This document shows, one piece after another, positions 5,509-41,525 of a stretch of 64,000 nucleotides of DNA; the stretch's first letter is position 1, and the number at the start of each line of letters is the position of its first letter. Source of the stretch: an uncultured Chloroflexia bacterium (GTDB lineage Bacteria; Chloroflexota; Limnocylindria; Limnocylindrales; CSP1-4). The notes beneath the pieces were generated by a model. The model did not search any database, was not told the DNA's origin, and saw only the letters and a list, made by a program, of their open reading frames with translations. The stretch covers positions 430,155 through 494,154 of the forward strand of contig CAWFBS010000008.1 of assembly GCA_963814115.1 (NCBI GenBank), read 5' to 3'. The translations under genes were made by a program, and so were the position numbers.

Positions 5509-6738
5509 GTGCCGACGGAACTGGCCGCGCTTCTCCCTGACCGCGACCTCGCCGCCCTGCGCGCGAGGATTGCCGCATCGCAGCCGAATTTGCTCACCGA
5601 CCTCGAGCGCCTCGTCAACCTGGACTCCGGCAGCTACACGCGCGACGGGGTGAACGAGGTCGCCGGCTGGGCGGCCGATCGCCTTGCCCGGCTGGGTGGC
5701 AAGGTGACCCGGCATGCCGACCCGGCCGGCCGGCTCGGCGATACGGTCGAGGCCGTCTTCGTGGGCGAACGGGGCGGTCCACGCGCCCTGTTGATCGGGC
5801 ATACGGACACCGTCTTCCCCGTCGGGACGGCCGCTGAGCGCCCGTTCCGGTTGGCGGGCGGCGTCGCGACCGGGCCCGGGGTGACCGACATGAAGGCCGG
5901 GCTGGTCACCCTGGTCTACGGGCTCGAGGCGGTGCTGGCCGCGGGCGGGCTCCCCTTCGAGCAGCTTACGGTCATCGCGAACCCGGACGAGGAGATCGGC
6001 TCTCCGGTCTCGACGGCCCACGTTCGGCGCGTCGCGGCCGACTGTGACGTGGCGTTCGTGCTCGAATGCGCTCGCGCGAATGGCGACATCGTCTCGGCGC
6101 GCAAGGGGACAGTGGACTACCAGGTGACGATCACGGGTCGCGCGTCTCACGCGGGAGTGGAGCCGGAGAAGGGGCGCAGCGCGATCCTCGAGGCGGCGCA
6201 CCAAGTGGTGGGCCTGCACGGGCTGACCGGTCGCTGGCCGGGCGTGACCTGCAACGTCGGTGTGATCTCGGGCGGGACGCGCCCCAACGTGGTGGCCGAC
6301 CAGGCCGTCCTCGAGGTCGACCTGCGGGCGGAGGACGGGGAGGCCATGGAGGCCGCCACCGCCGCGGTGCGCGAGCTCGCCGCCGCCCCGACGGTTCCGG
6401 GAGTCGTGGTCTCGGCCGTGGAGCGCCACCGGCACCCGCCGATGGAGAAGCTTGCGCGGTCCGCCCGGCTCGTGGAGCACGTCCTGGCGATTGCCGACCG
6501 GCTGGGCTTCGCCGTGCACGACGCCATGACCGGGGGTGCGTCGGACGCCAACACGACCGCCGCGATGGGGGTGCCGACGCTCGACGGCCTGGGCCCGATC
6601 GGCGGGCTGGACCACTCGCCCGACGAGTGGCTCGACGTGACGAGTATCGTCCCACGCACGACGCTCTTCGCGGCGCTGCTCGTCGCGGTCGGAAGGGACC
6701 GGCTGATCGCGGGCTGGCGGGTCGGCCCGATCCCCTGA
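5509..6738 (+). CDS. M20 family metallopeptidase (carboxypeptidase G2-like)
   Basis: GHTDTV...D(M)K metal-binding motifs and M20 dimerisation-domain signatures. 409 aa with a GTG start. Confidence 0.8.
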   Translation: MPTELAALLPDRDLAALRARIAASQPNLLTDLERLVNLDSGSYTRDGVNEVAGWAADRLARLGGKVTRHADPAGRLGDTVEAVFVGERGGPRALLIGHTDTVFPVGTAAERPFRLAGGVATGPGVTDMKAGLVTLVYGLEAVLAAGGLPFEQLTVIANPDEEIGSPVSTAHVRRVAADCDVAFVLECARANGDIVSARKGTVDYQVTITGRASHAGVEPEKGRSAILEAAHQVVGLHGLTGRWPGVTCNVGVISGGTRPNVVADQAVLEVDLRAEDGEAMEAATAAVRELAAAPTVPGVVVSAVERHRHPPMEKLARSARLVEHVLAIADRLGFAVHDAMTGGASDANTTAAMGVPTLDGLGPIGGLDHSPDEWLDVTSIVPRTTLFAALLVAVGRDRLIAGWRVGPIP

Positions 6739-8947: not shown

Positions 8948-10627
8948 TCACCAGGCAGCCGGCAGCCCGAGCGACCTCGGGTCGGTGGCGGCCGCCAGGG
9001 TCCCGCCGCGGGCCGGTCCCCCTTCGACCAGCTCGATCGCGTGGGCGTGTCCCAGCGCGCCGTCGAATGGCGCCCGCACGTCGAGATGGTGGCCCAGGGC
9101 GGCGAGTCGGTCCAGGAGGCCGGCGCGGAATCGCGCCTCGATGACGACCGTTTGCGGTGGGGCGAAGTGCCGGGCAGCGGCGGCATGCCAGCGCGGCGCG
9201 CCGACCGCGATCGCGACATCCACGCCGCCGTCGACCAGCGCCGAGACGACCTGGGCGAAGATCGCCGGTTGCGCGTCGCCGCCCATCGACCCGTGCACAA
9301 CCCACGGCCGGCCGTCGCGGAAGAGCATTCCGGGCATCAGCGTGTGGAGCGTTCGCTTCCCGGGAGCCAGCACGTTCGGGTGGGCCGGGTCCAGGCTGAA
9401 GTAGCTGCCCCGGTTCTGGTAGGCGATGCCCGTCGACGGCTCCACGATGCCCGACCCAAAGCCCGCGTAGTTCGATTCGATCAAGCTGACCGCATTCCCG
9501 CGGTGATCCACGACCGCGAGATAGACCGTCCCTCCGCCCGGCGGGTTCGTGGTTGGCACCGGCCTGGCGGCCCTCCCGGGATCGATCGCCGCGGCGAGCT
9601 CCGCGCCGTAGGCGGCGTCCAGCAGTTGTCCGACGGGGACGGTCCCGAACGTCGGGTCGGTCAGGAACGCGTCGCGGTCCGCCAGCGCGCGCTTGGTGGC
9701 CTCGATCCCGGCGTGGACCCAGCGCACGCCCGGCCCTGCGCTGCGGCCGCCGTCTCCCGGAATGAACTCGGCTGGGGCAGGCGCCGGCAGCGCCCGAAGG
9801 ATGTTGAGCACCTCGAGGCCGGTCACGCCCGAGCTGTTGGGCGGATGCGTGGTGGCCGTGGTGCCGCGATAGTCCAGGGTGAGCGGCGCCTCCCAGGTCG
9901 ACGCATGGCTCGCGAGGTCCCCGGCCGTGCACATCGAGCCAATCGCTGCGAGGCCGGCGGCCTGGCGGGCCGCGATCTCACCGGTGTAGAAGTCGTCCAG
10001 CCCGGAGGTCGCGAGCCGCTCCAGGGTCGCCCCAAGGGCGGGAAGTCGGACGCGCTCTCCGAGGCCCCACGGCCGCCCATGGGGCCGGTAGGTGGCGTGC
10101 CAGCCAGCCGCCAGCGGCCCGAGCGCTGCGTCGAAGACCGGGCCCGATCCCTCGACCGCCCGCACGAAGTGCTCGTCGGCCGGGAAGCCACCCCGGGCCA
10201 TCTCGATCGCGGGGGCCAGCAGCGTCGCGATCGGCAGCTCCCCCCAGCGCGCATGCGCGTCTGCCCAGGACCGGACCGCGCCGGGGACCGTGATCGTGAG
10301 CGGCCCGCGGAGGGGCAGCGTCGCCAGCCCGCGGGCCCGGAGGGCCTCCGCGTCCGTGCTCGCCGGGGCGCGTCCCGACCCGTTGAGCGCCGTCTGGGTC
10401 CCGGAGGCCTCGTCCCAGACCAGCCAGAACGCGTCCCCCCCGAGGCCGCACGCCTCACCCATCACGACCGCCAGGACCGCGTTCGTCGCGATCGCCGCGT
10501 CGACCGCGCTGCCGCCCTGCCTGAGGATGCCAAGACCAGCCGTGGACGCAAGGTGATGCGGTGCGACCACGGCGCCGGCGCCACCCCGGGCGAGCGGCAT
10601 CGGGGCAAGCGGTCGGACGGCGTCCAT
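8948..10627 (-). CDS. ggt: Gamma-glutamyltranspeptidase
   Basis: GGT family motifs (THPPNSSG..., GGTVYLAVVD, GSMGGD). ATG at 10627. No obvious signal peptide. Confidence 0.85.
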   Translation of the reverse strand: MDAVRPLAPMPLARGGAGAVVAPHHLASTAGLGILRQGGSAVDAAIATNAVLAVVMGEACGLGGDAFWLVWDEASGTQTALNGSGRAPASTDAEALRARGLATLPLRGPLTITVPGAVRSWADAHARWGELPIATLLAPAIEMARGGFPADEHFVRAVEGSGPVFDAALGPLAAGWHATYRPHGRPWGLGERVRLPALGATLERLATSGLDDFYTGEIAARQAAGLAAIGSMCTAGDLASHASTWEAPLTLDYRGTTATTHPPNSSGVTGLEVLNILRALPAPAPAEFIPGDGGRSAGPGVRWVHAGIEATKRALADRDAFLTDPTFGTVPVGQLLDAAYGAELAAAIDPGRAARPVPTTNPPGGGTVYLAVVDHRGNAVSLIESNYAGFGSGIVEPSTGIAYQNRGSYFSLDPAHPNVLAPGKRTLHTLMPGMLFRDGRPWVVHGSMGGDAQPAIFAQVVSALVDGGVDVAIAVGAPRWHAAAARHFAPPQTVVIEARFRAGLLDRLAALGHHLDVRAPFDGALGHAHAIELVEGGPARGGTLAAATDPRSLGLPAAW

Positions 10628-11987
10628 GAGCGGAATTCTAGGGGTCACCGGCCTGGATCTTGGGCCGCCGGACACGGCGGTTGCCGGGTACCCTGCATCC
10701 GTGGCACGTTCCATCTGGTCCGTCATCGTGGGGACGCTCACCCTTCGGTTCAGCACGGGCCTGACCGGTGCCATGCTGGTCTACTACCTGGCCGAGCTTC
10801 ACCGGCATGGCGGACCGCACGTGTCGTCGATCACGGTGGCGGTGTTCACCGCCGCCTTCTTCGCCGCCGAGCTGGTCCTTTCGCCCCTGTTCGGTTCGCT
10901 CGCGGATCGCTTCGGCTACCACCGGATCATGCAGTTCGGCCCCGTCTTCGGCGCGACCGCGGTCATCCTGACCGGGCTCACCACGAACCTCTGGATGCTG
11001 GGCGCGACGCGGTGGCTGGAGGGCGCCTCGAGCGCGGCCAGCGTGCCCTCCATCCTGGGCTTCATCGCGATTGCCACGCTGGCCGACGAGGGCCTGCGTG
11101 GGAAGGCGGTTGCGCGCTTCGAAGCCGCGACGCTCGCCGGCCTTGGCGTGGGCATCGTCGCGGCGGGGCCGCTCTGGACGCTCCTCCATCGTGACGCGTT
11201 CTTCGTGAACGCGGTCGTCTACGGGATCTCGTGGGCGATCTACCGGTTCGGCGTCGCCGACCCCCGGGCCGCGCACGGCGGCCACGAACACGAGCAGCGA
11301 ACAAGCCTGGCCCGCTACTTGCAGATCCTCTCGGGATCCCACGTCTGGCTGCTGGCGCCCACCTGGATCGCGGTCAACGCTGCGATCGGCCTGTGGACGT
11401 CCCAGTCCATCTTCCAGTTCGTGTCGGGCCCCGACCCGCGCTTCGCCAACCAGCGCCTGATGGCCGGCGCGTCGCCGCTGCTCGTGAGCGCGGGCCTGGC
11501 CGTCGGGATGGTCGTCTTCTTCGCCGGCCTCGTCTACTGGGGCAACCGGTTCAAGAAGATGCGCCGAACCACCATCATCCTGTACGGCCTGTGCGGCGGC
11601 GCCGCGCTGGTGGCGGCGGCCGTCGCCATCAACCACGGCGGCGACCTGCCCCTGATCGTGACGCTCGTCCTCCTCGTGCCCGTGGTCGGCGGCCTGTTCG
11701 TGCTCGCCGGATCGACGCCGGCGGCCCTCGGCCTGCTCGCGGACATGTCGGAGCCGTATCCGCGCGACCGGGGCGCGATCATGGGCCTGTACTCGGTGTT
11801 CCTTGGCGTCGGCCAGATTGCCGGCAGCCTGGTGGGCGGGGCTGCCGCCGAGAGGAGCGGCATCGACGGGCTGCTCCTGGCCACGCTGGTCATGCTCGCG
11901 ATCGCGGTGGTGCCCCTCTGGTGGCTCCGCGGCGTGGAGCACCATCTCGACTCCGTCGTTCGGCCCGGCTCCGCCGCGCCGGGCTGA
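10626..11987 (+). CDS. MFS transporter
   Basis: 12-TM protein with MFS motifs (GSLADRFGYHR). Its ATG shares the CATG tetranucleotide with the divergent ggt ATG, so an alternative downstream GTG start is possible. Confidence 0.8.
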   Translation: MSGILGVTGLDLGPPDTAVAGYPASVARSIWSVIVGTLTLRFSTGLTGAMLVYYLAELHRHGGPHVSSITVAVFTAAFFAAELVLSPLFGSLADRFGYHRIMQFGPVFGATAVILTGLTTNLWMLGATRWLEGASSAASVPSILGFIAIATLADEGLRGKAVARFEAATLAGLGVGIVAAGPLWTLLHRDAFFVNAVVYGISWAIYRFGVADPRAAHGGHEHEQRTSLARYLQILSGSHVWLLAPTWIAVNAAIGLWTSQSIFQFVSGPDPRFANQRLMAGASPLLVSAGLAVGMVVFFAGLVYWGNRFKKMRRTTIILYGLCGGAALVAAAVAINHGGDLPLIVTLVLLVPVVGGLFVLAGSTPAALGLLADMSEPYPRDRGAIMGLYSVFLGVGQIAGSLVGGAAAERSGIDGLLLATLVMLAIAVVPLWWLRGVEHHLDSVVRPGSAAPG

Positions 11988-14577: not shown

Positions 14578-14588
14578 GCTGCGCGGTT

Positions 14589-14683
14589 GTGACCGCCCTC
14601 CGCGGGGGAGCGGTCACGCCAACCTGACGCTGCATCCGGCTGCACCGCCCGTAGGCCCCGGCCATCCCGGCCGGGGCCTACGG
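14589..14683 (+). terminator. Two consecutive GC-rich hairpins downstream of gdhA (8-bp stem at 14589-14617; perfect 15-bp stem at 14649-14683)
   Basis: GTGACCGC...GCGGTCAC and CCGTAGGCCCCGGCC-atccc-GGCCGGGGCCTACGG read directly. A weak U-tract follows, so this is termination or RNA processing/stability rather than a proven terminator. Confidence 0.5.
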
Positions 14684-14713
14684 CGTTCCAGGAGCAGCCC
14701 GGGTCTGACCCCG

Positions 14714-15334
14714 GTGTACCATCCGGGAATGCTCGACCACGAAGAGAAGTTCCTGTTCAAGGAAGAGATCGGTCAGCTCGGGACCGCGATGGCGGACACG
14801 GCGGTCCTTGACAACGTGGAGGACCTCCTCACCGACGTCATCACGAGCCCCCGCTTCGATTCCGAGGTCTTCACGCTGGAGCGGTCGCTCCAGGTCATGC
14901 TTGGGGCGCGTGCCGGAAGCACCTTGGTCGGGCTCCTGACCGTGACGCCGGAGGTCTTCGACGAGGTCGCGGAAGTCCGGATCTCGCCCGAGGTGCACGA
15001 GCGCCTCGTGGCGTGGCGGGCGCGCTTCGGCCTCGCGATCGACAACGCCCTGAACTTCCTGAACAACCCGGATGGCATCCAGGGCCACTCGTTCGCCACC
15101 CAGATTGCCCACATCGAGGACCGGCGTGTCCTCCAGGGGCGCCTCACGCTGGTCCGCTACAACAACGAGCCCCAGTTTTTCGTCGCCGACGCGAGCGTGT
15201 TCCTGGGCCTCGTCAGTGACGTGCTCGAGCGGCTCGGCCCGTATCTCGAGCCGGACGCGGTCGACCCGGAGACGATCGCGCGTCTCAAGGAGGCGATCGC
15301 GCTCGTCGAGCGAAAGACGACGCCGCGCGGATGA
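14714..15334 (+). CDS. Hypothetical protein (206 aa)
   Basis: ORF with normal composition and no recognisable motif. Its stop overlaps the ATG of the next small ORF. Confidence 0.5.
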   Translation: MYHPGMLDHEEKFLFKEEIGQLGTAMADTAVLDNVEDLLTDVITSPRFDSEVFTLERSLQVMLGARAGSTLVGLLTVTPEVFDEVAEVRISPEVHERLVAWRARFGLAIDNALNFLNNPDGIQGHSFATQIAHIEDRRVLQGRLTLVRYNNEPQFFVADASVFLGLVSDVLERLGPYLEPDAVDPETIARLKEAIALVERKTTPRG

Positions 15335-15519
15335 GCCGGCGCGGTGGCCAGGCCGCCACCCGGCGCCGGCCGCGGCCGCGCCCGGCGCAACCGTCCGGGC
15401 TCAGTCGCGGCGCTGCGCGTCGAAACCGGCGCCTCGCGTTCGTCCTTCTCGCCGCGTTCGCGCTGATCGCCCTCGCCATCCTCGCGACTCCGTTCGCCGC
15501 GGCCCCCACCCACCCCTAG
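15331..15519 (+). CDS. Small membrane protein (62 aa, single TM helix)
   Basis: ATGA start/stop overlap with the upstream gene. Arg-rich N-terminus followed by one hydrophobic helix (LAFVLLAAFALIALAILATPFAAAP). Confidence 0.35.
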   Translation: MSRRGGQAATRRRPRPRPAQPSGLSRGAARRNRRLAFVLLAAFALIALAILATPFAAAPTHP

Positions 15520-15541
15520 CGCGGGCCGTCCCAGACACCCC

Positions 15542-16741
15542 GTGCGTCACCTCTACCTCGCCGCGACCGGCCAGAACCGCGGCAAGACCACTGCCTCGCT
15601 GGGGCTGGTCCACGCGTTCCTCGGGGCGGGGCTCCGGGCGGGCTTCACCAAGCCGGTGGGCCAGCGCACGGTGACCGACGCATCGGGGCTCCCGGCCGAC
15701 GAGGATGCCGTGCTCATGAAGGCCGTCTTCGGTCTCTCCGAGCCGAACGATGTGATGAGCCCGGTGCACATCCCGCGGGGCTTCACGAAGGCCTACATCG
15801 CCGGCGAGGTGACCGATGACCTCGGTGCTCGGATCCAGCGGGCGCACGCGATCCTGGCGGAGACCAAGGAGCTTGTCCTGATCGAAGGGACCGGGCATGC
15901 CGGCGTCGGCGCGGTGATCGGGCTGTCGAACGCGGTGGTCGCCAGCCTGCTCGGAGCCCCGGCGGTGATCGTCAGCGAGGGTGGTGTCGGGCGACCCATC
16001 GACGAGATCGTCCTCAACGCCGCCCTGTTCGAGAAGCACGGTGTCGCCGTGGCGGGCGCCATCGTTAACAAGGTCGACCTCGACGCGCAGCCCGGCATCC
16101 AGGCGGTGCTGGAGCGCGGCCTGGCCCGCCACGGCATCGCCCTGCTCGGCGTCATCCCGTATCGGCCGCTGCTCTCGAACCCGAGCCTGGCAATGATTCT
16201 CGAGGGGACGCAGGCTGAACTGCTCAACCGCGGACCGGACCTCGACGCGGTGATCGGCGGCATCAGCGTGGCCGCGATGGAACCCCACCATGTCCTGCAG
16301 CACGTGGTCGGTCGCCGGATCGTGATCGTCACGGGCGATCGCGAGGACGTGATCGTGGCGCTGTCCCGTGCCCACCGGGCGGAGATGCGCCGTCCCGCCG
16401 TGATCCGCGGCGAGGTCGTCCCATCCATGCTCGGCTTCGTCCTCTCTGGCTATCGCCCTCGGCCGGTGGTGGTGGACGAGATCCGCCGGGCAGACCTCTT
16501 CGCCTGTTTCCTTGACGAGGACGCCTACATGGTGGCGTCCGACGTGCATGACCTGCTGGTGAAGACGCATCCGGCCGACCGCGAGAAGATCGCCACGATC
16601 AAGGCGATCGTCGGCGAGGCGCTCGACGTGGGCCGCTTCCTCGATGCGGCAACGGAGGCGCGCATCCCTGCCCCGGTCAAGCCCCCGCGACCGGCGGCAG
16701 CCCGGCGGGGAGGGGCGAGCCGCGGCGGAAGCGCCGGATGA
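15542..16741 (+). CDS. AAA (CobQ/BioD-like P-loop) + DRTGG domain protein, similar to the phosphotransacetylase N-terminal regulatory domain; no PTA catalytic domain
   Basis: N-terminal P-loop LYLAATGQNRGKTT, then IVTGDREDV (DRTGG-type motif). 399 aa. Resembles the Pta N-terminal half. Confidence 0.65.
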   Translation: MRHLYLAATGQNRGKTTASLGLVHAFLGAGLRAGFTKPVGQRTVTDASGLPADEDAVLMKAVFGLSEPNDVMSPVHIPRGFTKAYIAGEVTDDLGARIQRAHAILAETKELVLIEGTGHAGVGAVIGLSNAVVASLLGAPAVIVSEGGVGRPIDEIVLNAALFEKHGVAVAGAIVNKVDLDAQPGIQAVLERGLARHGIALLGVIPYRPLLSNPSLAMILEGTQAELLNRGPDLDAVIGGISVAAMEPHHVLQHVVGRRIVIVTGDREDVIVALSRAHRAEMRRPAVIRGEVVPSMLGFVLSGYRPRPVVVDEIRRADLFACFLDEDAYMVASDVHDLLVKTHPADREKIATIKAIVGEALDVGRFLDAATEARIPAPVKPPRPAAARRGGASRGGSAG

Positions 16742-17672
16742 GAAGGAACCCGATCAGCCCCAGCACCCCGACGACCAGGAAGACCGGAAGGCCCACGATC
16801 AAGAGCCAGATTCCGAAGCCGGCAAGCCCCTGACCGAGCCCGACGAGCGTCGCGGCCGCCTGGTCAACCTCGCGGCCGGGATCCCATCCCTCGCGCACCT
16901 GGGTGACGGCGACAGCCGGGGGCGGCGCGAAGGTGACCGTGAGCGTGGCCAGCGCGGCCTGGTTCTCGAGGGTCTGCTGCTGGGCCGTCAGCTCCTCGAT
17001 CTGCTGGCGCACGCTGGTCAGCTGCTCCTGCACCGCCAAAACGTCCGCGATCTTCATGGCCCGGTCCATGATTCCCTGGAGCGCCGTCTCCGTGACCCGG
17101 AGGTTGGCGAGGCGTGCCCCCAGGTCCACGACCTGCGCGGTGACCTCCTGGCTCGACGTCTGCTCGCCGAGGACCTTCGTCCCGATTGCCCGCAGCGCGT
17201 CCAGCGCGTCGGTCCAGCGGGCCGCCGGGACCCGGAAGGTGACGCTCGCAGTCGCCCGATCGCCGTCGCCGCTCCGCTGTGATCCGGCGACGTACCCGCC
17301 CACGGTGGCGACCGCGCGCTCCGCGTCGCCGATCGCGCCGTCCAGGTTCGCAACCTGGAGGTCGAGCTCGCCGGTCCGGACGATCAGCGGGCCGCCAACG
17401 TCGGGGAAAGTCGTCCCGTCCGTCGCGGCGGACCCGCTCGCACCCGCGGCGTTCTGAAGCGAGCCGAAGGCGGAATCGCGGTTGGCCGGCGCCGGGGCGG
17501 CTGTCGACGCCGGGACGGCGCCAACCCCTGGGACGCCTTCGGCGCTGGTGGGGCTGCTCGTCGCGCTGCTGCAGCCGGCCAGCAGGATCAAGCTTGTGGC
17601 AAGGAGGCTACCCAACGCGAACCGGAGCCCGGGGTGCGACCCCCCGCCGACGTGGATGCTCTCGCTCTTCAT
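16677..17672 (-). CDS. DUF4349-like lipoprotein with C-terminal TM anchor
   Basis: Signal peptide plus lipobox LLAGCSS. Coiled-coil-like middle region. C-terminal hydrophobic helix plus RRFRR. The 3' end overlaps the convergent DRTGG gene by about 65 nt. Confidence 0.55.
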   Translation of the reverse strand: MKSESIHVGGGSHPGLRFALGSLLATSLILLAGCSSATSSPTSAEGVPGVGAVPASTAAPAPANRDSAFGSLQNAAGASGSAATDGTTFPDVGGPLIVRTGELDLQVANLDGAIGDAERAVATVGGYVAGSQRSGDGDRATASVTFRVPAARWTDALDALRAIGTKVLGEQTSSQEVTAQVVDLGARLANLRVTETALQGIMDRAMKIADVLAVQEQLTSVRQQIEELTAQQQTLENQAALATLTVTFAPPPAVAVTQVREGWDPGREVDQAAATLVGLGQGLAGFGIWLLIVGLPVFLVVGVLGLIGFLLIRRFRRGSPLPAGLPPVAGA

Positions 17673-17756: not shown

Positions 17757-18587
17757 TCAGCCCAGGTGGATGTTGTCGATGAGGCGCGTGGTGCCGAACC
17801 GCACCGCGAGCGAGAGCATGGCTGGCCGTTGGATCCGATCCAGCTCTTCGAGCGTCGTGTCGTCGGCGCAGGAGACGTACTCGACGCTGGCGCGCGGCTC
17901 GGCGGCGAGCACCGCGGCGACGCGGTCGCGAATGGCGCTGGCGTCGCGCTCTCCGGCGTCCCACGTGACCCTGCCCTCGAGCAGGGCGCGATGCAGGACC
18001 GGGGCCGCGGCGCGATCGTCGGCGGCAAGGTGGACGTTCCGGGACGAGAGTGCCAGCCCGTCGGGCTCCCGGACGGTCGGGCAGCGGACGACCTCGGTCA
18101 GGCCCAGGTCCCGGGCCATCCGCTCGATCACCCGGAGCTGCTGGCCGTCCTTCTCGCCGAAGTAGGCGCGGTCGGGCCGAACGATGCCGAACAGCACCGC
18201 GACGACAGTCGTGACGCCGGCGAAATGTCCCGGGCGGGCGGCACCCTCCAACGGGAGCGTCAACCGATCGACGGTCACGGACGTGTCGAACCCCGCCGGG
18301 TAGACGTCGTCGACCGACGGGAGCCAGACGAGGTCCGCACCGGCATCCGCGCATAACCGCAGGTCGCTGGCCTCGCCGCGAGGGTATTGCGCGAGGTCGG
18401 CCGGGTCGTCGAACTGGCGGGGATTGACGAAGATCGAGACCGCGACGGCCCCGCATTCGTCGCGGGCCCGCGCGATCAGGGAGCGGTGGCCGGCGTGAAG
18501 CCATCCCATCGTGGGGACCAGCCCGAGTGGCCGGGGCAGTCCGCCCAGCGCGCGGCGGAGCTCCGCGCGGCTCCGGACGACGTCCAC
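17757..18587 (-). CDS. panC: Pantoate--beta-alanine ligase
   Basis: PTMGWLHAGH HIGH-type motif and full-length PanC similarity (276 aa). Confidence 0.9.
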   Translation of the reverse strand: MDVVRSRAELRRALGGLPRPLGLVPTMGWLHAGHRSLIARARDECGAVAVSIFVNPRQFDDPADLAQYPRGEASDLRLCADAGADLVWLPSVDDVYPAGFDTSVTVDRLTLPLEGAARPGHFAGVTTVVAVLFGIVRPDRAYFGEKDGQQLRVIERMARDLGLTEVVRCPTVREPDGLALSSRNVHLAADDRAAAPVLHRALLEGRVTWDAGERDASAIRDRVAAVLAAEPRASVEYVSCADDTTLEELDRIQRPAMLSLAVRFGTTRLIDNIHLG

Positions 18588-18597
18588 CGAGGGCGAT

Positions 18598-19518
18598 TCA
18601 GAGATCGCGGTCGAGCGGGATGCCGGCGCCGGCGACCCCCGGCTCGGTGGCCGTGCGGTCGTCCGGGCTCCTGCCGAGGACCTCGTCGAGGACAGCGTCG
18701 TCCATGCGGCTCGACTGGGCGGCGCCCGGGAACGTGCCCGCCTCCACCTCGGCCCGGTAGGCGGCAGCCGCCGCGAGGATCGTCCCTCGGAGGTCCGCGT
18801 AGGCCTTGGCGTGGCGCGGCCTGAAGGAGCCGAGACCCAGGAAGTCGGTCACGACCTGCACCTGACCGGAGCACCCCGCGCCCGCGCCGATGCCGATGGT
18901 CGGGATTCGCAGCCGTGCCGTGATCGCAGCTGCGAGCTGCTCCGGCACCAGCTCCACCACGATCGCAAATGCCCCCGCTTCCTGGACCGCCAGGGCGTCG
19001 TGCATGAGCGCCCGAGCCGCATCGCGGGTCCGGCCCTGGACGCGAATCTTGCCGAGCGCGTTGATCGCCTGGGGGGTCAGGCCCACGTGACCCATCACCG
19101 GGACTCCGGTCCGGACAAGCGTCTCGATCACGCGCGCGGTCCGGACGCCGCCCTCCACCTTCACCGCCTGCGCGCCTGCCTCGCGGAGGAATCGGCCGGC
19201 GTTCCGGACCGCGTCGTCCGGCGTCGCATACGAGAGGAAGGGCATGTCGGCCACGATCAACGCCCGATGCGCGCCCCGGACCACGGACTTGGCATGGTGG
19301 AGCATCTCGTCCATCGTCACCCGGACGGTGGACTCGTAGCCCAGCATCACCTGGCCCAGGGAGTCGCCCACGAGGAGCATCGGAATCCCCGCCTCGTCCA
19401 GGATGGCGGCCGTCGGGTAGTCGTACGCGGTCAGCATCGCGATGCGTTCGCCGTCGGCGTGCATGCGGGCGATGTCGACCACCGATAGGCGCGGCGCGGT
19501 CTCCGGCGTGCTGCTCAC
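18598..19518 (-). CDS. panB: 3-methyl-2-oxobutanoate hydroxymethyltransferase
   Basis: LTAYDYP, VGDSLG and GHVGLTPQ motifs. ATG overlaps the coaBC stop (ATGA). Confidence 0.9.
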
Positions 19519-20915
19519 GAGGCGGTTCTCCCGGTTGCGGATGTCGCGCCAGTCTGCGCCGCCGCGTCCCGAGCGTCCAGCAGGGCCACGACGCGATCGA
19601 GGATCCGGTCGGCCACGATGCGCTTGGGCAGGAGCGGCAGCGCCTCCGTGGCGCCGTCGGCCGCGAACAGCGTCACCCGGTTGGTCGAAGTTCCGAAACC
19701 GGATCCCGGCTCGCTCACATCGTTGGCCACGAGGAGGTCGACCCGCTTCGCCCGGAGCTTGGCGGCGGCACGCTCCAACCCCCCGGTCTCCGCGGCGAAC
19801 CCGACCATGACGGGCCGTGGAAGGATCGGCACGCCAGTCTGGCCGCCGGTCGCGTCGAGACCGTCGACCCGGTGACCGAGCTCGGCGAGCACGTCCGGGT
19901 TGGGAATCAGCTCCAGCGCCAGGCCGGCCCCGGTCCGCGCGATCTTCCGGGCAGCCGTCACGGCGGGCCGGAAATCTGCCACCGCGGCCGACATGACCAG
20001 GGCATCGAAGCCCGCCCCGCCGGTTGGCGCGAGGACGAGCGACGCGAGCGCTGCCTGCATCGCCGCCGCCGTCTCGGCATGGAGCACCTCGACGCCGGTG
20101 GGTATCGGGGCAGAGATCGTGCCGGCGACCAGCGTGACCCGCGCACCGCGATCGCGGGCGGCATCGCAGATCGCGAAGCCCATCGCGCCGGTGCTGCGGT
20201 TGCCGATGAACCGGACGGGATCGATCGGCTCCGCCGTTCCTCCCGCGGTAACCACCACGTGGCGACCGGCCAGGTCGTCCGTGTCGCGCCCCGGTTCATC
20301 CGCGTCGAGGAGGCGAGGGGGGCGGTCGGCGGGGTCGGGCGTTCGGATCGCGCGCGCCCCGATCGCATCGATCGCCACGTCGACGATTCGATCGAGGGCG
20401 GCCAGGCGACCGATGCCGACCTGGCCGGAGGCAAGGCTGCCGGCTTCGGGCTCCACGATCCGGTAGCCGAACTCGTCGCGGAGGATCCGCACGTTCTCCT
20501 GTGTCGCCGGATGGGCGTACATGTCCCCGTCCATCGCCGGCGCGACCACGACCGGCGCGGACGTGGCGAGGCAGGTCGCGGTGACGACATCGGCAGCCAG
20601 CCCGTGCGCCATCGCGCCCAGCCAGTGGGCGGTGGCGGGCGCGACGACGACCACGTCCGCCGCATCGGCGGTGATCACGTGGCCGATCCGCCCATCCGGG
20701 AGGAGGTCCAGGACGTCCGCGTCCACGGGCCGGCGACTGAGCGCCGCGAGCGTGAGCGGTGCGACGAAGCGCGTCGCCGACGGCGTCATGAGCACGGCCA
20801 CGTCGGCGCCCTCGGCACGCAGGAGGCGCAGCAGGTCGACGGCCTTGAACGCGGCGATCGAGCCGGTGATACCCAGCGCGACGAAACGTCCAGCGAGGCG
20901 ACCGGGCTGGCTCAC
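19515..20915 (-). CDS. coaBC: Bifunctional phosphopantothenoylcysteine decarboxylase / phosphopantothenate--cysteine ligase
   Basis: N-terminal flavoprotein domain ([10 protein letters not shown]) plus C-terminal DFP ligase domain (NRSTGAMG). 466 aa. Confidence 0.9.
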
Positions 20916-21712
20916 GCCTGGGCCCCGTCGCCGGTGACCGCAACGTGCAAATGCACCAGCCCCTTGAGGGTGAGGTCCGGGTCGATCCCGTCCAGCCCTT
21001 CGATCGTGTGGGCCCAGGGGAGGCTGCTCAGGCCGCCCGTCAGGACGGCCCGGACCTGGTGGGGGGCGATCCCCGCTCCGACCGCGAGCTCACGTCGAAG
21101 GTGGCCCAGGACCCCCTCGATCATCATCCGGTGCCCGAGCACGGTCCCCACCCGGATTGCGGACGCCGTGTCGCGTCCGATCGCGTTCTCGGGGCTGCGC
21201 AGCTCCACCAGGGGGAGCCGGGCCGTGTGGGCGGCCAGGGCCTCGAGGCCGAGCCCGAGTCCGGGCGCGATCGCGCCGCCCACGAAGTCGCCCCGCGAAT
21301 CGACCGCATCAAAGGTCGTGGCCGTCCCGCAGTCGACGACGACGGCCGGCCGCCCGAGGAGGTGTGCCGCAGCGTACGCGTTGACAAGCCGGTCTGGCCC
21401 GACCTCGTCGGGCTGGTCAACCTCGATTGCCATCGGGATCGTGTCAGCACCGGCGAACAGGGACGGGATTCGGCGCCGCGCCGCGATCTCCCCGAGGACC
21501 TCCTCCAGGGCCGGGACGGTGCTCGAGATTGCCACCGCCGCGACCGCGGACAGGTCCTGCCCATCGAGTCGGAGCAGGTCGTCGATCAGGACCTCCAGCT
21601 CGTCAGGGGTCCCACGGGGACGAGTTGCCGCGCGCCGCGATGAGATGAGGACGCCGTCGCGGGCCAAACCGAGCCTGACGTGGGTGTTCCCGGCATCGAT
21701 CACGAGGAGCAT
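20912..21712 (-). CDS. coaX: Type III pantothenate kinase
   Basis: LLVIDAGNTHV N-terminus and PanK-III family length (266 aa). 4-nt overlap with coaBC. Confidence 0.85.
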   Translation of the reverse strand: MLLVIDAGNTHVRLGLARDGVLISSRRAATRPRGTPDELEVLIDDLLRLDGQDLSAVAAVAISSTVPALEEVLGEIAARRRIPSLFAGADTIPMAIEVDQPDEVGPDRLVNAYAAAHLLGRPAVVVDCGTATTFDAVDSRGDFVGGAIAPGLGLGLEALAAHTARLPLVELRSPENAIGRDTASAIRVGTVLGHRMMIEGVLGHLRRELAVGAGIAPHQVRAVLTGGLSSLPWAHTIEGLDGIDPDLTLKGLVHLHVAVTGDGAQA

Positions 21713-33581: not shown

Positions 33582-35807
33582 GTGGATTCAAGCTCGCTCC
33601 AACTTGTCATCCTGCCCGCCGGCCTGATCGCGGTCGGGTTTGCGCTGTATCTCGCCCGGGACGTCCTCCGGCGCGACACCGGCACGAAGGCCATGGAGGA
33701 CGTCGCGGCGACCATCTTCGAGGGAGCCGTCGCGTTCATCCGGCGCCAATACTCGACCATCGCGATCCTCGCCCTGGTCGCCGCGGTCGGGCTCGCGGTG
33801 CTCATCTCGGTGGCCGAGACGGCGAACGTCGCCGACACCAGCACGTACGGCGCGGCGCTCGGGATCCGGACCGGGATCGCGTTCCTCGTCGGCGCGGCGT
33901 GCTCGATGGCATCCGGGATCATCGGCATGTTCATCAGCGTGAAGTCGAACGTCCGGACCGCTGCGGCGGCCCGGCGCAGCCTCGTCGAGGCGGTCCAGGT
34001 CGCGATGCGGGGCGGCGCCGTCTCGGGCTTCCTCGTCGTCGCGCTGTCGCTGCTGGGCGTCTACCTCATGTTCGCCGCCTTCGGTGGCCTCAACCCCGAC
34101 ACGGTGAAGGACGCGCCGTTCCTCATCGTGGGCTACGGGTTCGGCGCGAGCTTCGTCGCGCTGTTCGCCCAGCTCGGCGGCGGGATCTACACGAAGGCCG
34201 CCGATGTCGGGTCGGACCTCGTGGGCAAGGTGGAGAAGGGGATTCCCGAGGACGACCCACGGAACGCGGGGGTCATCGCCGACCTCGTCGGCGACAACGT
34301 CGGCGACTGTGCGGGCCGCGGGGCCGACCTGTTCGAGTCCACCGCGGCCGAGAACATCGGCGCGATGATCCTGAGCGTAGGCGTCTACTACGTCGCCCTG
34401 AAAGCCGGCTGGGCGAACCCGGAGGCTTGGATCTTCTTCCCGCTCGTCGTCCGCTCGTTCGGGCTGCTCTCGACGATCATCGCGATGTACTTCGTCCGCG
34501 GCAGCGAGGACGAGAACCCCATGAACATCCTGAACCGCGGTTACTGGGTCACCACGATCCTCTCGGTGGTCTCGCTTGGCTTCGTCACGAACGTGATGAT
34601 GCAGACGGGCACCCAGACCGGCGCCAACGGCATCCCGACCTGGATCTGGTTCTTCGGGGCCGGCGTGGTGGGCCTGGCGACCAGCGTCGCGTTCGTCTAC
34701 ATCACCCAGTACTACACCGCGGGAACCTTCCGGCCGGTCAGGGAGATCGCCGAGGCCAGCAAGACCGGGCCGGCCACGAACATCATCATCGGCACCGCGG
34801 TGGGTTACGAGACCACGTTCGTGACGGCGGTCACGATCGGCATCGCGCTCTTCCTGAGCCACTGGCTCGGCTCCCAGGCCGGCCTGACCGACGCCGCGGG
34901 CGCCAATGTCGGCGGCATCTTCGGGACCGCGGTGGCGACGATGGGCATGCTGATGACCTGTGCCTACATCCTGGCCATGGACACGTTCGGGCCCATCACC
35001 GACAACGCCGGCGGCATCGCCGAGTTCAGCGGGGCAGAGGCGGGCGCGCGGGAGATCACCGACCGCCTCGACGCGGTCGGCAACACCACCAAGGCGCTCA
35101 CCAAGGGCTACGCGATCGCCTCCGCCTCGCTGGCCGCATTCCTGCTCTTCAGCGCGTACATCGACAAGATCAACCTGATCCTGGGTCGCCAGATCGCGGC
35201 AGGCAAGCAGGGCGTGACGCTGATGACGTCGGTGAACATGGAGAACGTCAACGTGTTCATCGCGGCGCTCATCGCCGCGATGCTCGTCTACTTCTTCAGT
35301 TCGCTGGCCATCCGGGCGGTGGGCAAGACCGCAGGCGCGATCATCGTCGAGGTCCGTCGGCAGTTCCGGGAGATGCCCGGGATCATGACCTACGAGCAGA
35401 AGCCGGACTACGCGCGCGTGGTGGACATCACGACCCGGGCCGCGCTCCGCGAGATGGTCGCGCCCGGCCTGGTCGCCGTCGCCACCCCGGTCATCGTCGG
35501 ACTGCTCCTCGGCTACGAAGCCGCGGCCGGCCTGCTCATGGTGGGCACGATCGCGGGCGTCCTCCTCGCCACCGTCCTCAACAACGGCGGTGGCGCGTGG
35601 GACAACGCCAAGAAGTACATCGAGTCGGGCCACCTCACCGACGACCAGGGGAACGTCCTGGGGAAGGGCAGCGATGCCCACGCCGCGGCGGTCGTCGGGG
35701 ACACGGTCGGCGATCCGTTCAAGGACACGGCCGGGCCGTCGCTCCACGTGCTCGTGAAGCTGCTGGCCACGATCACGCTCGTCCTCGCGCCGATCTTCAT
35801 CCGCTAG
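33582..35807 (+). CDS. hppA: K+-insensitive/‑type membrane H+-translocating pyrophosphatase
   Basis: 741 aa with 15-16 TM helices. Hallmark H+-PPase motifs GGG(I/A)YTKAADVGSDLVGKVE, DNVGDCAG and DNAGGIAE. GTG start with GGGAGG SD. Confidence 0.9.
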   Translation: MDSSSLQLVILPAGLIAVGFALYLARDVLRRDTGTKAMEDVAATIFEGAVAFIRRQYSTIAILALVAAVGLAVLISVAETANVADTSTYGAALGIRTGIAFLVGAACSMASGIIGMFISVKSNVRTAAAARRSLVEAVQVAMRGGAVSGFLVVALSLLGVYLMFAAFGGLNPDTVKDAPFLIVGYGFGASFVALFAQLGGGIYTKAADVGSDLVGKVEKGIPEDDPRNAGVIADLVGDNVGDCAGRGADLFESTAAENIGAMILSVGVYYVALKAGWANPEAWIFFPLVVRSFGLLSTIIAMYFVRGSEDENPMNILNRGYWVTTILSVVSLGFVTNVMMQTGTQTGANGIPTWIWFFGAGVVGLATSVAFVYITQYYTAGTFRPVREIAEASKTGPATNIIIGTAVGYETTFVTAVTIGIALFLSHWLGSQAGLTDAAGANVGGIFGTAVATMGMLMTCAYILAMDTFGPITDNAGGIAEFSGAEAGAREITDRLDAVGNTTKALTKGYAIASASLAAFLLFSAYIDKINLILGRQIAAGKQGVTLMTSVNMENVNVFIAALIAAMLVYFFSSLAIRAVGKTAGAIIVEVRRQFREMPGIMTYEQKPDYARVVDITTRAALREMVAPGLVAVATPVIVGLLLGYEAAAGLLMVGTIAGVLLATVLNNGGGAWDNAKKYIESGHLTDDQGNVLGKGSDAHAAAVVGDTVGDPFKDTAGPSLHVLVKLLATITLVLAPIFIR

Positions 35808-39944: not shown

Positions 39945-41281
39945 GCGTCGGCGTGCAACGGCTGCGAGACGAGCCCGATCTCATCCGAAAGGGCGCGATC
40001 GACAAGGGCGAGGACGCGACGCTCGTGGACACGGCCGTCGCGCTCGACGCGCGCCGGCGGGCGCTCCTCGGCGAGGCGGACGCGCTCAAGGCCGAGCGCA
40101 ACATGGCCTCGCGGCAGGTCGGTGATGCGATCAAGGCCGGCGCCGCGCCCGCCGGCCCGGAGGTCGCGGCATTGCGCGCCGCGTCCGTTGCCGCGGGCGA
40201 GCGGATCGCCACCCTCGACGTCGAGATCGGCCGCGTCGAGGCCGAGCTGGAGGACGCGCTCCTGCGCATCCCGAACCCGGCCGACCCCGACGTGCCGATC
40301 GGCGACGCCGACGCGAGCGTGACGGTCCGTACCTGGGGCGAGCGACTCCCGCGGTCGGTGGCCGCGGCGGAGGCCGGGGGCCCGGACGCCGCCGCACCGG
40401 CCTGGGAGCGCCGGCCCCACTGGGACGTCGCTGAGCGCCTTGGCATCTTCGAGCTCGAGCGCGGCGCCAAGATCGCGGGCTCCGGCTTTCCCGTCTACCG
40501 CGGGGCCGGGGCAGGGCTGCAGCGCGCCCTGATCGACTTCTTCCTGGGCGTCCACACGCGCGAGAACGGATTCACCGAGATCTGGCCGCCCGCCGTCGTC
40601 AACGCCGCGTCCGCGCGGGGCACGGGCCAGATCCCGGACAAGGAAGACCAGATGTACGTCGTGACGCGCGACGAGCTCTACCTGGTCCCGACGGCCGAGG
40701 TGCCGGTCACGAACCTCCACCGCGGCGAGATCTTCGAGGCCGGCGAGCTGCCCGTCCGCTACGCGGCGTACTCACCCTGCTTCCGCCGGGAGGCCGGTGC
40801 GGCGGGCAAGGACACCCGCGGGATCCTGCGCGTCCACCAGTTCGACAAGGTCGAGATGGTGCTCTTCGAGACACCCGAGGCGTCCGCCGAGGCGCTCGAG
40901 TGGATGGTGGGCCGGGCCGAGGATCTCCTGCGCCGCCTCGGGCTGGCCTACCGCGTGCTCCTCATGGCGACCCGCGACATGGGGTTCGTGCAGGCCAAGA
41001 AGTACGACCTGGAGGTCTGGGCGCCCGGCGTGGAGCGCTGGCTGGAGGTCTCCTCCTGCTCGAACTTCCGGGACTACCAGGCGCGCCGGATGGCGATCCG
41101 CTACCGCCCGGCGCCGGGGGCGCGGCCTGAGCTGGTCCACACGCTGAACGGGTCGGGCCTCGCGCTTCCCCGGGTCGTCGCGTCGATCCTGGAGACGTAC
41201 CAGGAGGCGGACGGCAGTGTCCGCGTCCCGGAGCCGCTCCGGGTCTCGCTCGGGACGGACCGGCTGCGCCCACCGGCCTGA
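39941..41281 (+). CDS. serS: Serine--tRNA ligase
   Basis: N-terminal coiled-coil arm plus class II core motifs (e.g. FRRE, GSGLALPR). ATGA overlap with the lysK stop. Confidence 0.9.
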   Translation: MSVGVQRLRDEPDLIRKGAIDKGEDATLVDTAVALDARRRALLGEADALKAERNMASRQVGDAIKAGAAPAGPEVAALRAASVAAGERIATLDVEIGRVEAELEDALLRIPNPADPDVPIGDADASVTVRTWGERLPRSVAAAEAGGPDAAAPAWERRPHWDVAERLGIFELERGAKIAGSGFPVYRGAGAGLQRALIDFFLGVHTRENGFTEIWPPAVVNAASARGTGQIPDKEDQMYVVTRDELYLVPTAEVPVTNLHRGEIFEAGELPVRYAAYSPCFRREAGAAGKDTRGILRVHQFDKVEMVLFETPEASAEALEWMVGRAEDLLRRLGLAYRVLLMATRDMGFVQAKKYDLEVWAPGVERWLEVSSCSNFRDYQARRMAIRYRPAPGARPELVHTLNGSGLALPRVVASILETYQEADGSVRVPEPLRVSLGTDRLRPPA

Positions 41282-41525
41282 CCGCTGCCGCGCCGGTCGG
41301 AGCGCGCAGACCCCCGCGGCCGGTCTCACCATCCCGGCGGCTGGTCTCGTTGCCCCGGCCAGGATGCGCATCCCGCCCGATTCCCGGGCGCGCAAGCGGC
41401 GTGTACGATCTCCGCCTGATGCAACGGAGCGCCGGACCGAGTCCTCGACGTTCACCACCGGATCCGGTGGAAGCGCAGCGTGGGCATGGTGCGGGAGGTC
41501 CGGGCTTGAGCCGGGACATCCGGTC

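Follow-up and report, generated by a model that had tools for sequence, protein, structure and literature searches.

The N-terminal half of class IIa phosphotransacetylase (Pta) is built from a P-loop/AAA_26 domain followed by a DRTGG domain, and class II Pta relies on this pair for oligomerisation and allosteric control (PMC12724200 gives a summary). What the P-loop/DRTGG unit does is a loose end of acetate-switch enzymology. Elsewhere, DRTGG domains are known only from regulation or oligomerisation (bioRxiv 10.1101/2020.04.07.028951; PMC12724200); they are shared, for example, by the regulatory inserts of CBS-pyrophosphatases and by AF1212. The two-domain unit also occurs as a stand-alone protein of ~350-400 aa that lacks the catalytic PTA_PTB domain. 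DVU3031 of Desulfovibrio vulgaris has this architecture (PMC4481167) and sits in the por-pta-ack-ldh operon, and DVU3031 itself is required for growth on L-lactate (PMC4481167, PMC10102598). Haloarchaeal copies, annotated as "phosphotransacetylase family protein", adjoin an acetate-CoA ligase gene in all 7 replicons that are annotated (of 8 hits), and in both of the loci inspected (L085, L086) that gene, which encodes an NDP-forming acyl-CoA synthetase (ACD), lies upstream and overlaps the start of the stand-alone gene by 4 nt. The partners of these proteins are recognisable acetyl-CoA or lactate enzymes. A literature search on COG0857 returned no papers, and nothing relevant on BioD-like phosphotransacetylase; the stand-alone architecture is already known, if uncharacterised, and the protein described below is not its first case.

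The locus considered here lies in the window, i.e. the whole 64,000-nucleotide stretch of DNA that was analysed, from an uncultured Chloroflexia bacterium. It encodes a stand-alone protein of this kind, p399, beside an orphan protein, p201, with a small membrane peptide, p62, between them. Its features are:

14578-14705, + strand: region between gdh and p201, containing two long GC-rich hairpins
14717-14722, + strand: -10-like hexamer TACCAT, separated by 6 nt from ATG 14729
14729-15334, + strand: p201, 201 aa, GC1/2/3 = 0.71/0.38/0.90
15331-15519, + strand: p62, 62 aa, its start ATG overlapping the p201 stop (ATGA)
15542-16741, + strand: p399, 399 aa, AAA_26 plus DRTGG
15545-16183, + strand: BioD-like P-loop ATPase domain of p399, residues 2-214
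15566-15592, + strand: P-loop of p399, TGQNRGKTT
16196-16549, + strand: DRTGG domain of p399, residues 219-336
16670-16741, + strand: C-terminal tail of p399, residues 377-399 plus stop, non-conserved and low-complexity
16677-17672, - strand: convergent DUF4349 gene

The first-pass annotation had described a cluster of three + strand ORFs (14714-15334, 15331-15519 and 15542-16741) facing the DUF4349 gene, and this is present at exactly those coordinates, together with the ATGA stop/start overlap between the first two ORFs that it also reported. Its 206-aa first protein, read from GTG 14714, needs correction, as the real start is ATG 14729 and the product has 201 aa. Other neighbours are gdh upstream and panC/panB/coaBC/coaX.

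In the Limnocylindria, an uncultivated class of Chloroflexota with high abundance in soils and freshwaters (PMC6169038, PMC13212565), p201 and p399 form a conserved two-gene operon. The p399 gene follows p201 in 76 of 80 species-representative genomes, which bears out the co-occurrence of the 201-aa protein with a DRTGG protein that had been proposed as a check; the four remaining genomes have p201 without an adjacent p399. No other junction in the block comes close to it in tightness: the gap measures -1 to 93 nt in 59/75 loci. gdh lies upstream of p201 on the same strand in 70/80 genomes, at a distance of 36-2678 nt. The insertions found between p201 and p399 are all same-strand membrane-protein genes: p62, a 42-aa TM ORF (L076) and a 246-aa multi-TM protein (L036, L079). 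The earlier idea of a module is borne out for the conserved p201/p399 pair and not for the 62-aa gene, which is found in a single subclade.

Profiles and structure agree with the original view of p399 as a P-loop/AAA plus DRTGG protein without a catalytic domain. Pfam gives AAA_26 (E=3.5e-30, residues 2-214) and DRTGG (E=6.1e-11, residues 219-336) with no PTA_PTB match, and a conserved C-terminal helical segment follows DRTGG to about residue 376. The NCBIfam Pta model PRK05632 aligns over positions 2-382 of 708 only, with 116 bits where 418 are required. Source annotations call homologs of p399 "BioD-like phosphotransacetylase family protein", but it is no phosphotransacetylase. Nor is it a full-length Pta with a misplaced start, the outcome that the first-pass annotation had named as refuting its view: orthologs share an MR(H/Q)LYLAATG start and measure 358-404 aa (a single truncated call has 112 aa), PTA_PTB is absent, and the convergent gene directly follows.

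The likeness to the regulatory half of an E. coli-type Pta, which had been put as sameness, extends to domain order, a Pta-type N-terminal P-loop-like domain and then DRTGG. It does not extend to the nucleotide site, where p399 keeps BioD-type ATP/Mg residues that a genuine class II Pta has lost. The protein has a BioD fold with the P-loop and the equivalents of K37, D54 and E115. Residues T9, K15, T16, K37, D53-D55, E115-G-x-G and N176 align with those of BioD; across 72 orthologs each reaches at least 90% conservation, and most do not vary at all. Unlike the Pseudomonas class IIa Pta, which reads GVGLTS and VEGMVP at the corresponding sites, p399 retains the Walker A Lys/Thr, the acidic Mg-ligand positions and EGxG. 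Since this site is retained, p399 probably works as an ATPase and not as a degenerate regulatory domain. Haloarchaeal copies likewise keep GKT and EGxG; the identity of the known stand-alone proteins to p399 is only 23-31%. p399 carries none of the CBS or pyrophosphatase catalytic domains of the other DRTGG proteins, and it differs from class IIa Pta in having no PTA_PTB in cis and in being encoded by its own gene beside an orphan. A linkage of the DVU3031 type to acetyl-CoA/acetate or lactate enzymes, a trait of context and not one that strictly defines the family, is absent from its neighbourhood; the window genes scanned include no pta, ackA, ACD or ldh gene.

In place of such an enzyme stands p201, an acidic, cytoplasmic protein (pI 4.65, net charge -14) that is the most conserved gene product of the block. 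Its median identity is 85.5%, versus 79% for GDH and 63% for the DRTGG protein, and its median pN of 0.092 is the lowest in the block. An exhaustive phmmer search found only 123 matches among 1.84 billion representatives, and the genuine full-length ones are all at least 71% identical; as judged by sequence the family is restricted to Limnocylindria, relatives outside the class being undetectable. Five apparently "divergent" homologs (P0254, P0258, P0260, P0248, P0249) are frameshifted calls, and five apparent Rosetta-stone fusions (P0215, P0250, P0300, P0356, P0243) are read-through or frameshift artefacts of error-rich contigs. Pfam, NCBIfam, PADLOC and PDB sequence searches gave nothing significant, in accord with the uncharacterised status first assigned to the protein; this negative is sequence-based, the AF2 model being too poor for fold assignment. 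Pfam runs on all 25 members of the p201 alignment gave sub-threshold matches to Na_Pi_cotrans in 19/25 (best E=0.003), which were judged compositional. A hidden PTA_PTB or acyl-CoA-synthetase-like domain was likewise rejected, p201 having no detectable similarity to the known partner enzymes (hhalign probability 0.06% and 0.56%, respectively). As p201 outranks GDH in conservation across a whole uncultivated class and no relatives elsewhere can be detected, it is a candidate for a lineage-defining core function. A defence-system reading of the locus was dropped because the PADLOC search was empty.

The p201-p399 operon is probably transcribed leaderless from its own promoter, starting at ATG 14729. 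The equivalent of this ATG is the start codon in 79/80 p201 orthologs, whose lengths are mostly 199-201 aa. In 78/81 loci the ATG is preceded, at a distance of 6-7 nt, by the end of a TAnnnT hexamer, and in one more the distance is 9 nt; 55 of the loci bearing the hexamer have a TGn extension. In the controls the counts are 4/69 for the DRTGG gene and 0/64 for gdh, each examined upstream. The two p201 loci without the hexamer have AGGAG instead. No full-consensus sigma70 promoter was found. Such a near-constant hexamer, a -10 element at start-codon distance with no Shine-Dalgarno sequence, implies a dedicated promoter and a leaderless mRNA. The five codons 5' of ATG 14729 are a non-coding promoter element, since the motif drifts in frame between loci and contains an in-frame stop in 6 of them. 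Upstream, the 14578-14705 region folds strongly as RNA (MFE -97.7 kcal/mol, z = -5.4 against 200 shuffles). Rfam holds no family for this intergenic region, its sole weak match being a palindrome at 14649-14683, and a reading as an RNA element was dropped on that account. The region lacks a T-tract terminator and is probably the end of the gdh transcription unit, terminator-like without a T-tract.

p62 is probably a real single-pass membrane protein. As first described, it has a basic N-terminus and one TM helix: a 35-residue N-terminal tail with 12 Arg is followed by the helix AFVLLAAFALIALAILAT (nt 15436-15489; best 19-residue hydropathy 2.8) and a short Pro-rich tail. A 62-codon ORF is insignificant by itself, as DNA of 72% GC leaves 4 of 6 frames open across this interval in all genomes, so that openness is uninformative and the support must come from comparative data. 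Chance opening of a GC-rich intergenic spacer would also fit the atypical whole-ORF GC1/2/3 of 0.78/0.70/0.87, the similar pN/pS of the antisense wobble-sharing frame and the lack of the ORF in most of the class. Such an origin nevertheless appears improbable, because the nine loci that have the ORF keep it in the same position, with the ATGA/GTGA overlap, the stop position and whole-codon indels conserved, and all six nucleotide differences between the window and L001 are third-position and synonymous. Moreover, although pN/pS is 0.41 overall, the TM half has a pN of 0.067 versus a pS of 0.293 and GC1/2/3 of 0.75/0.56/0.94, and the basic-tail-plus-TM layout survives at 43% identity in L012 and L039. 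The combination of a hydrophobic helix, a positive-inside flank and coding-type conservation thus points to a membrane peptide. It is nonetheless a subclade add-on and not a core member of the locus, as which it had been put forward, since its 9 loci here and its 17 protein clusters in 5.8 billion proteins belong to one subclade only. L007, which keeps p201 and p62 though p399 is absent next door, links p62 to p201.

Gene structure, domain identity, fold, catalytic-type residue conservation, adjacency and relative evolutionary rates are shown by the data above. The explanation that we favour, tentatively and at not quite an even chance, is a lineage-specific Limnocylindria operon, with its own promoter and a leaderless mRNA from ATG 14729, whose p201 and stand-alone ATPase/DRTGG products act together. 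p399 would bind and hydrolyse ATP and work with p201 as its partner, effector or substrate. p201 would then stand where PTA_PTB sits in cis in Pta and where the translationally coupled gene for the NDP-forming acyl-CoA synthetase sits upstream in haloarchaea. In the window's subclade the p62 gene would have been inserted between the two, translationally coupled to p201, and the Arg-rich cytoplasmic tail of p62 (net charge +12, complementary to the -14 of p201) could plausibly anchor either acidic p201 or the complex at the membrane. The alternative to be taken most seriously, although it seems unlikely, is that p399 is a regulatory or oligomerisation subunit acting in trans on an enzyme encoded elsewhere (for instance GDH next door, an NDP-forming acyl-CoA synthetase or a Pta of class I), with p201 a separate, essential protein that is a neighbour only by lineage-specific synteny or co-transcription. 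The function of the domain pair in class II Pta (summarised in PMC12724200) and the acetyl-CoA/acetate enzymes beside other stand-alone copies (PMC4481167) fit such a subunit. So do the position of gdh, the great difference in rate between p201 and p399, and the genomes in which p201 has no p399 beside it. However, the window genes scanned hold no Pta, AckA or ACD gene, the promoter of p201 sets it apart from gdh, the p201-p399 gaps are short against those between gdh and p201, and a complete BioD-type site argues for more than passive regulation.

p399 could instead be an autonomous ATP-dependent enzyme with a mechanism of the BioD/CobQ/CTP-synthase type, in which a carboxylate or carbamate of some small molecule is activated by way of a phosphorylated intermediate, with p201 accessory or unrelated. 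This is a doubtful reading, as no substrate can be inferred, DRTGG occurs otherwise only in regulatory or oligomerisation contexts, and the tight coupling to p201 would stay unexplained. Far less probable still is that p399 simply serves these organisms as their BioD, with one domain added. Fold and active-site residues do match, but the BioD equivalog model TIGR00347 gives 38 bits, below its cut-off of 83.3, and the Pta N-half model gives 116 bits across 381 positions, the putative substrate loops differ, and no bio genes, and so no bio-operon context, are found within +/-6 kb. BioD proteins, to our knowledge, lack a DRTGG domain. Returning to the favoured explanation, its boldest form, to which we give only a small probability, is that p201 and p399 are an unrecognised ATP-dependent, Limnocylindria-specific two-protein system, in which a Pta-N module of ancestral type, catalytically intact, would act on the orphan protein or through it, and that the micropeptide takes to the membrane in some lineages. 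If that were so, class II Pta would carry as its N-terminal half the degenerate remains of an active, partner-directed ATPase, and stand-alone AAA plus DRTGG proteins (DVU3031, the haloarchaeal ACD-linked copies) would make up a general class of ATP-driven modulators acting in trans. Until a function is known, the practical significance is modest. The p201/p399 locus is nevertheless a clean case, with an intact BioD-type site and only one partner, which is tightly coupled and extremely conserved, and the question can for this reason be put to ATPase assays, pull-downs and structural studies.

The 3' end of the operon shows the overlap of about 65 nt with the DUF4349 gene noted at first pass, measured here as 65 nt (16677-16741). 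It arises because residues ~377-399 of p399 extend into the convergent gene. This tail is missing from more than 50% of the 72 orthologs, and residues 378-399 have a pLDDT below 50 and are predicted to be disordered. The same overlap is found in the close relatives L001 (65 nt) and L002 (80 nt) and is absent in L003 and L004; third-position GC shifts to the DUF4349 frame at ~16660.

Three forward ORFs and a convergent gene lie where the first-pass annotation had placed them, and the ATGA that joins the stop of the first ORF to the start of the second was seen directly in the sequence:

14714-15334, forward: first ORF as originally called, 206 aa, corresponding to the orphan protein p201
15331-15519, forward: 62 codons, encoding p62, a predicted single-pass membrane peptide
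15542-16741, forward: 399 aa, encoding p399 (the DRTGG gene)
16677-17672, convergent: DUF4349 gene (Pfam), 331 aa

The region is ~70% GC; GC1/2/3 values give a clear coding signature for the first ORF (0.71/0.38/0.90) and the third (0.76/0.47/0.88) and an ambiguous one for the 62-codon ORF (0.78/0.70/0.87). Metagenome-assembled genomes under the labels Chloroflexota, Candidatus Limnocylindrales or Limnocylindria supply the nearest relatives; the last is an uncultivated class known from freshwater and soil (PMC6169038, PMC13212565). The order in a 97%-identical contig is MFS, DegV, DegV, GDH, 201-aa, 62-aa, AAA_26/DRTGG, convergent DUF4349, panC, panB, coaBC, coaX.

By its profile matches p399 is the domain pair of the N-terminal half of phosphotransacetylase (Pta), as originally proposed: Pfam places AAA_26 at residues 2-214 (E=3.5e-30) and DRTGG at residues 219-336 (E=6.1e-11), and the Pta catalytic domain is absent, the NCBIfam phosphate acetyltransferase model aligning at positions 2-382 of 708 only, with 116 bits vs a cut-off of 418. 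A mis-annotated full-length Pta is refuted. Structural comparison values were 20.2 for E. coli dethiobiotin synthetase (BioD; 1a82), 14.4 for the DRTGG-containing 3l31, 13.8 for the E. coli Pta N-terminal domain (7t85, 26% identity) and 13.6 for the DRTGG domain 2ioj, and Foldseek is consistent with these matches. Among 72 orthologs the motifs YLAATGQNRGKTT, KPVGQR, PVHIPRGFT, EGTGH, GGVGRP, NKV and TGDRED reach 90% conservation or more and are for the most part invariant; the last ~23 residues are absent in more than half. The reported 65-nt overlap with the DUF4349 gene is present and falls in this disordered, non-conserved tail; the two nearest relatives share it, those at greater distance do not, and it has no evident functional role.

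Stand-alone AAA+DRTGG proteins are an already known, uncharacterised kind, an example without PTA_PTB being DVU3031 of the Desulfovibrio vulgaris por-pta-ack-ldh operon (PMC4481167). In haloarchaea a "phosphotransacetylase family protein" adjoins an acetate-CoA ligase gene in all seven annotated replicons (8 matches in total). In the two regions inspected, both on megaplasmids (L085 2896-6065, L086 2902-6068), a ~700-aa ligase gene overlaps the start of the AAA_26/DRTGG gene, which encodes an intact P-loop GKT, by 4 nt, and one of the two ligases is an NDP-forming acyl-CoA synthetase by Pfam; a literature search found no paper on this pairing. When p399 is aligned with a bona fide BioD, a Pseudomonas class IIa Pta and a pair of stand-alone haloarchaeal homologs, the P-loop Lys/Thr and EGxG prove to be kept in p399 and the haloarchaeal proteins; p399 further retains K37, N176 and the acidic positions D53-D55, all aligning with BioD. 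The Pseudomonas enzyme, in contrast, has lost the BioD-type site that the stand-alone copies keep, with GVGLTS and VEGMVP in its place. On the basis of these retained residues p399 looks catalytically competent, and it presumably binds or hydrolyses ATP.

The partner protein p201 is acidic (pI 4.65, net charge -14) and its 206-aa version has no Pfam match. An exhaustive phmmer search of 1.84 billion cluster representatives gave only 123 matches, largely fragments, and no fewer than 355 species-representative genomes have the gene. Real members show about 71% identity or more, and "divergent" full-length homologs (including proteins P0254, P0258 and P0260) proved to be frameshifted gene calls. 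Where all four genes were nearly complete (42 genomes), p201 matched the window at a median identity of 85.5%, against 78.9% for GDH, 63.0% for p399 and 63.6% for PanC, and it exceeded GDH in 41 of these genomes. Non-synonymous divergence, taken as the median over 52 genome pairs, was lowest in p201 (0.092), higher in gdh (0.141) and highest in the DRTGG gene (0.227). Frameshifted or read-through calls for the p201 locus, derived from error-rich contigs, are many in public protein collections; apparent p201-p399 and GDH-p201 fusions (among P0215, P0243, P0250, P0300 and P0356) are of this origin and mistakable for domain fusions. Contigs carrying the Limnocylindria-specific p201-p399 pair at 84-86% identity under the labels Methylomirabilota, Patescibacteria, Candidatus Binatus or Nanopelagicales (L051, L077, P0059, P0195) probably reflect binning contamination or mislabelling.

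The start of p201 is better placed at 14729, since the equivalent ATG is the start in 79 of 80 orthologous loci and the five additional codons of the 206-aa call are a conserved nucleotide motif; homologs are mostly 199-201 aa. Its sequence is TACCAT at 59 loci and TAGAGT, TACGAT or TAGCAT elsewhere; it shifts reading frame among loci, with an in-frame stop in six, and is thus not coding. In 78 of 81 loci a TAnnnT hexamer stops 6-7 nt short of the ATG, and in one more the distance is 9 nt (79/81); of these 79 hexamers, 55 bear a TGn extension. By the same scan, 4/69 regions 5' of the DRTGG gene and 0/64 regions 5' of gdh contain one. The -10-like hexamer and ATG occupy:

14717-14731, forward: window
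about 5985-6003: loci L005-L084

This spacing is the geometry of a -10 element starting transcription at the start codon, and so implies a leaderless p201 mRNA, with a predicted promoter that is not shared with gdh. In the exceptions, L069 and L082, an AGGAG Shine-Dalgarno replaces the hexamer, and neither has the DRTGG gene downstream. The gdh-p201 spacer (14578-14705) folds into a pair of long hairpins rich in GC (MFE -97.7 kcal/mol, z = -5.4); an almost perfect palindrome at 14649-14683 is part of this structure. The spacer has neither an Rfam family match nor a T-tract, and may be a gdh terminator or repeat element.

In 76 of the 80 species-representative loci p201 is followed by the p399 gene; in the other four (L007, L014, L069, L082) p201 has no adjacent DRTGG gene, and these regions are not masked. 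The distance from p201 to p399 falls between -1 and 93 nt at 59 of the 75 loci where it could be measured, as compared with 36 to 2678 nt for gdh-p201 and -55 to 4329 nt for p399-panC, and the wider gaps contain same-strand membrane-protein genes:

p201-p399 gap, same strand: 62-65-aa peptide (p62)
L076 6607-6735, same strand, p201/p399 junction: 42-aa ORF, basic plus TM
L036 6621-7361 and L079 5137-5877, same strand, p201/p399 junction: 246-aa multi-TM protein without Pfam match

Different membrane-protein genes have been inserted repeatedly at this junction across Limnocylindria species.

The peptide p62 had been taken as a member of the set; most of the class lacks it, and it is an add-on of restricted lineage whose position is constant in its carriers: the window, L001, L002, L005-L008, L012 and L039. 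It has no Pfam match and only 17 clusters among 5.8 billion proteins. In the DRTGG protein tree its carriers share one clade with loci that lack it, a pattern suggestive of a single gain and subsequent losses. The overlap of its start with the p201 stop (ATGA/GTGA) is conserved, its indels are whole codons, and the basic-tail-plus-TM architecture is retained even at 43% identity; the window and L001 differ by 6 substitutions, at third positions only. The TM half has pN 0.067 vs pS 0.293 and GC1/2/3 of 0.75/0.56/0.94, although four of six frames are open across p62 at this GC content and pN/pS is 0.45 in the wobble-sharing antisense frame vs 0.41 in the p62 frame. From these features p62 is quite probably a real gene, and one tied more closely to p201 than to p399, since L007 has p201 and p62 without p399.

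The most likely reading, still a tentative one, is that p201-(p62)-p399 is a leaderless operon whose P-loop/DRTGG product is ATP-dependent and acts with p201. The genes would be transcribed together as a leaderless operon, p399 would work together with p201, and p62, in the window's subclade, may serve as a membrane anchor for acidic p201 or for the complex. The first-pass annotation's observation of a gene set stands, and its interpretation as a self-contained module stands in part. That p399 instead regulates an enzyme encoded elsewhere, p201 being unrelated in function, seems somewhat unlikely. In its favour, the class II Pta N-terminal region is reported necessary for full activity, oligomerisation and allosteric responses (summarised in PMC12724200); against it, no pta, ackA or acyl-CoA synthetase is among the window genes scanned, and p201 and p399 are closely linked. 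An autonomous BioD-type enzyme acting on a small molecule is unlikely, and p399 as the BioD of the lineage is highly improbable, since it falls below the equivalog cut-off and is without bio-gene context. Operation of p399 together with p201 remains the preferred reading. No new principle is demonstrated by the locus; what is new is the orphan ultra-conserved partner p201, the explicit observation that stand-alone copies retain the BioD-type site lost from the class II Pta examined, the predicted leaderless promoter and the subclade-specific micropeptide. As a way into what the Pta-N/DRTGG module does, and into a candidate lineage-defining orphan protein, the locus is tractable.

A compact CoA-biosynthesis cluster (panC, panB, coaBC and type III pantothenate kinase; 17757-21712, reverse) is convergent to the DRTGG gene, and the position of panC is conserved across the class; because the genes are convergent, a functional tie to the Pta-N-like protein is suggestive only. 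Upstream, gamma-glutamyltranspeptidase and GDH form a glutamate-related gene neighbourhood. The longest-ORF calls for gamma-glutamyltranspeptidase (8948-10774, reverse) and a divergent MFS transporter (10626-11987, forward) share 149 nt at their 5' ends, probably from an over-extended start in one or both. Unrelated window genes include this transpeptidase, an M20 peptidase, AzlC, SerRS and the following:

4-2160: Lhr helicase, C-terminal winged-helix part, cut by the window start
33582-35807: H+-translocating pyrophosphatase
41217-43976, forward: GAF-PAS-EAL protein, 919 aa

The GAF-PAS-EAL protein has no GGDEF match at E<=1e-5, and its residues 1-215 and about 500-686 carry no domain assignment.
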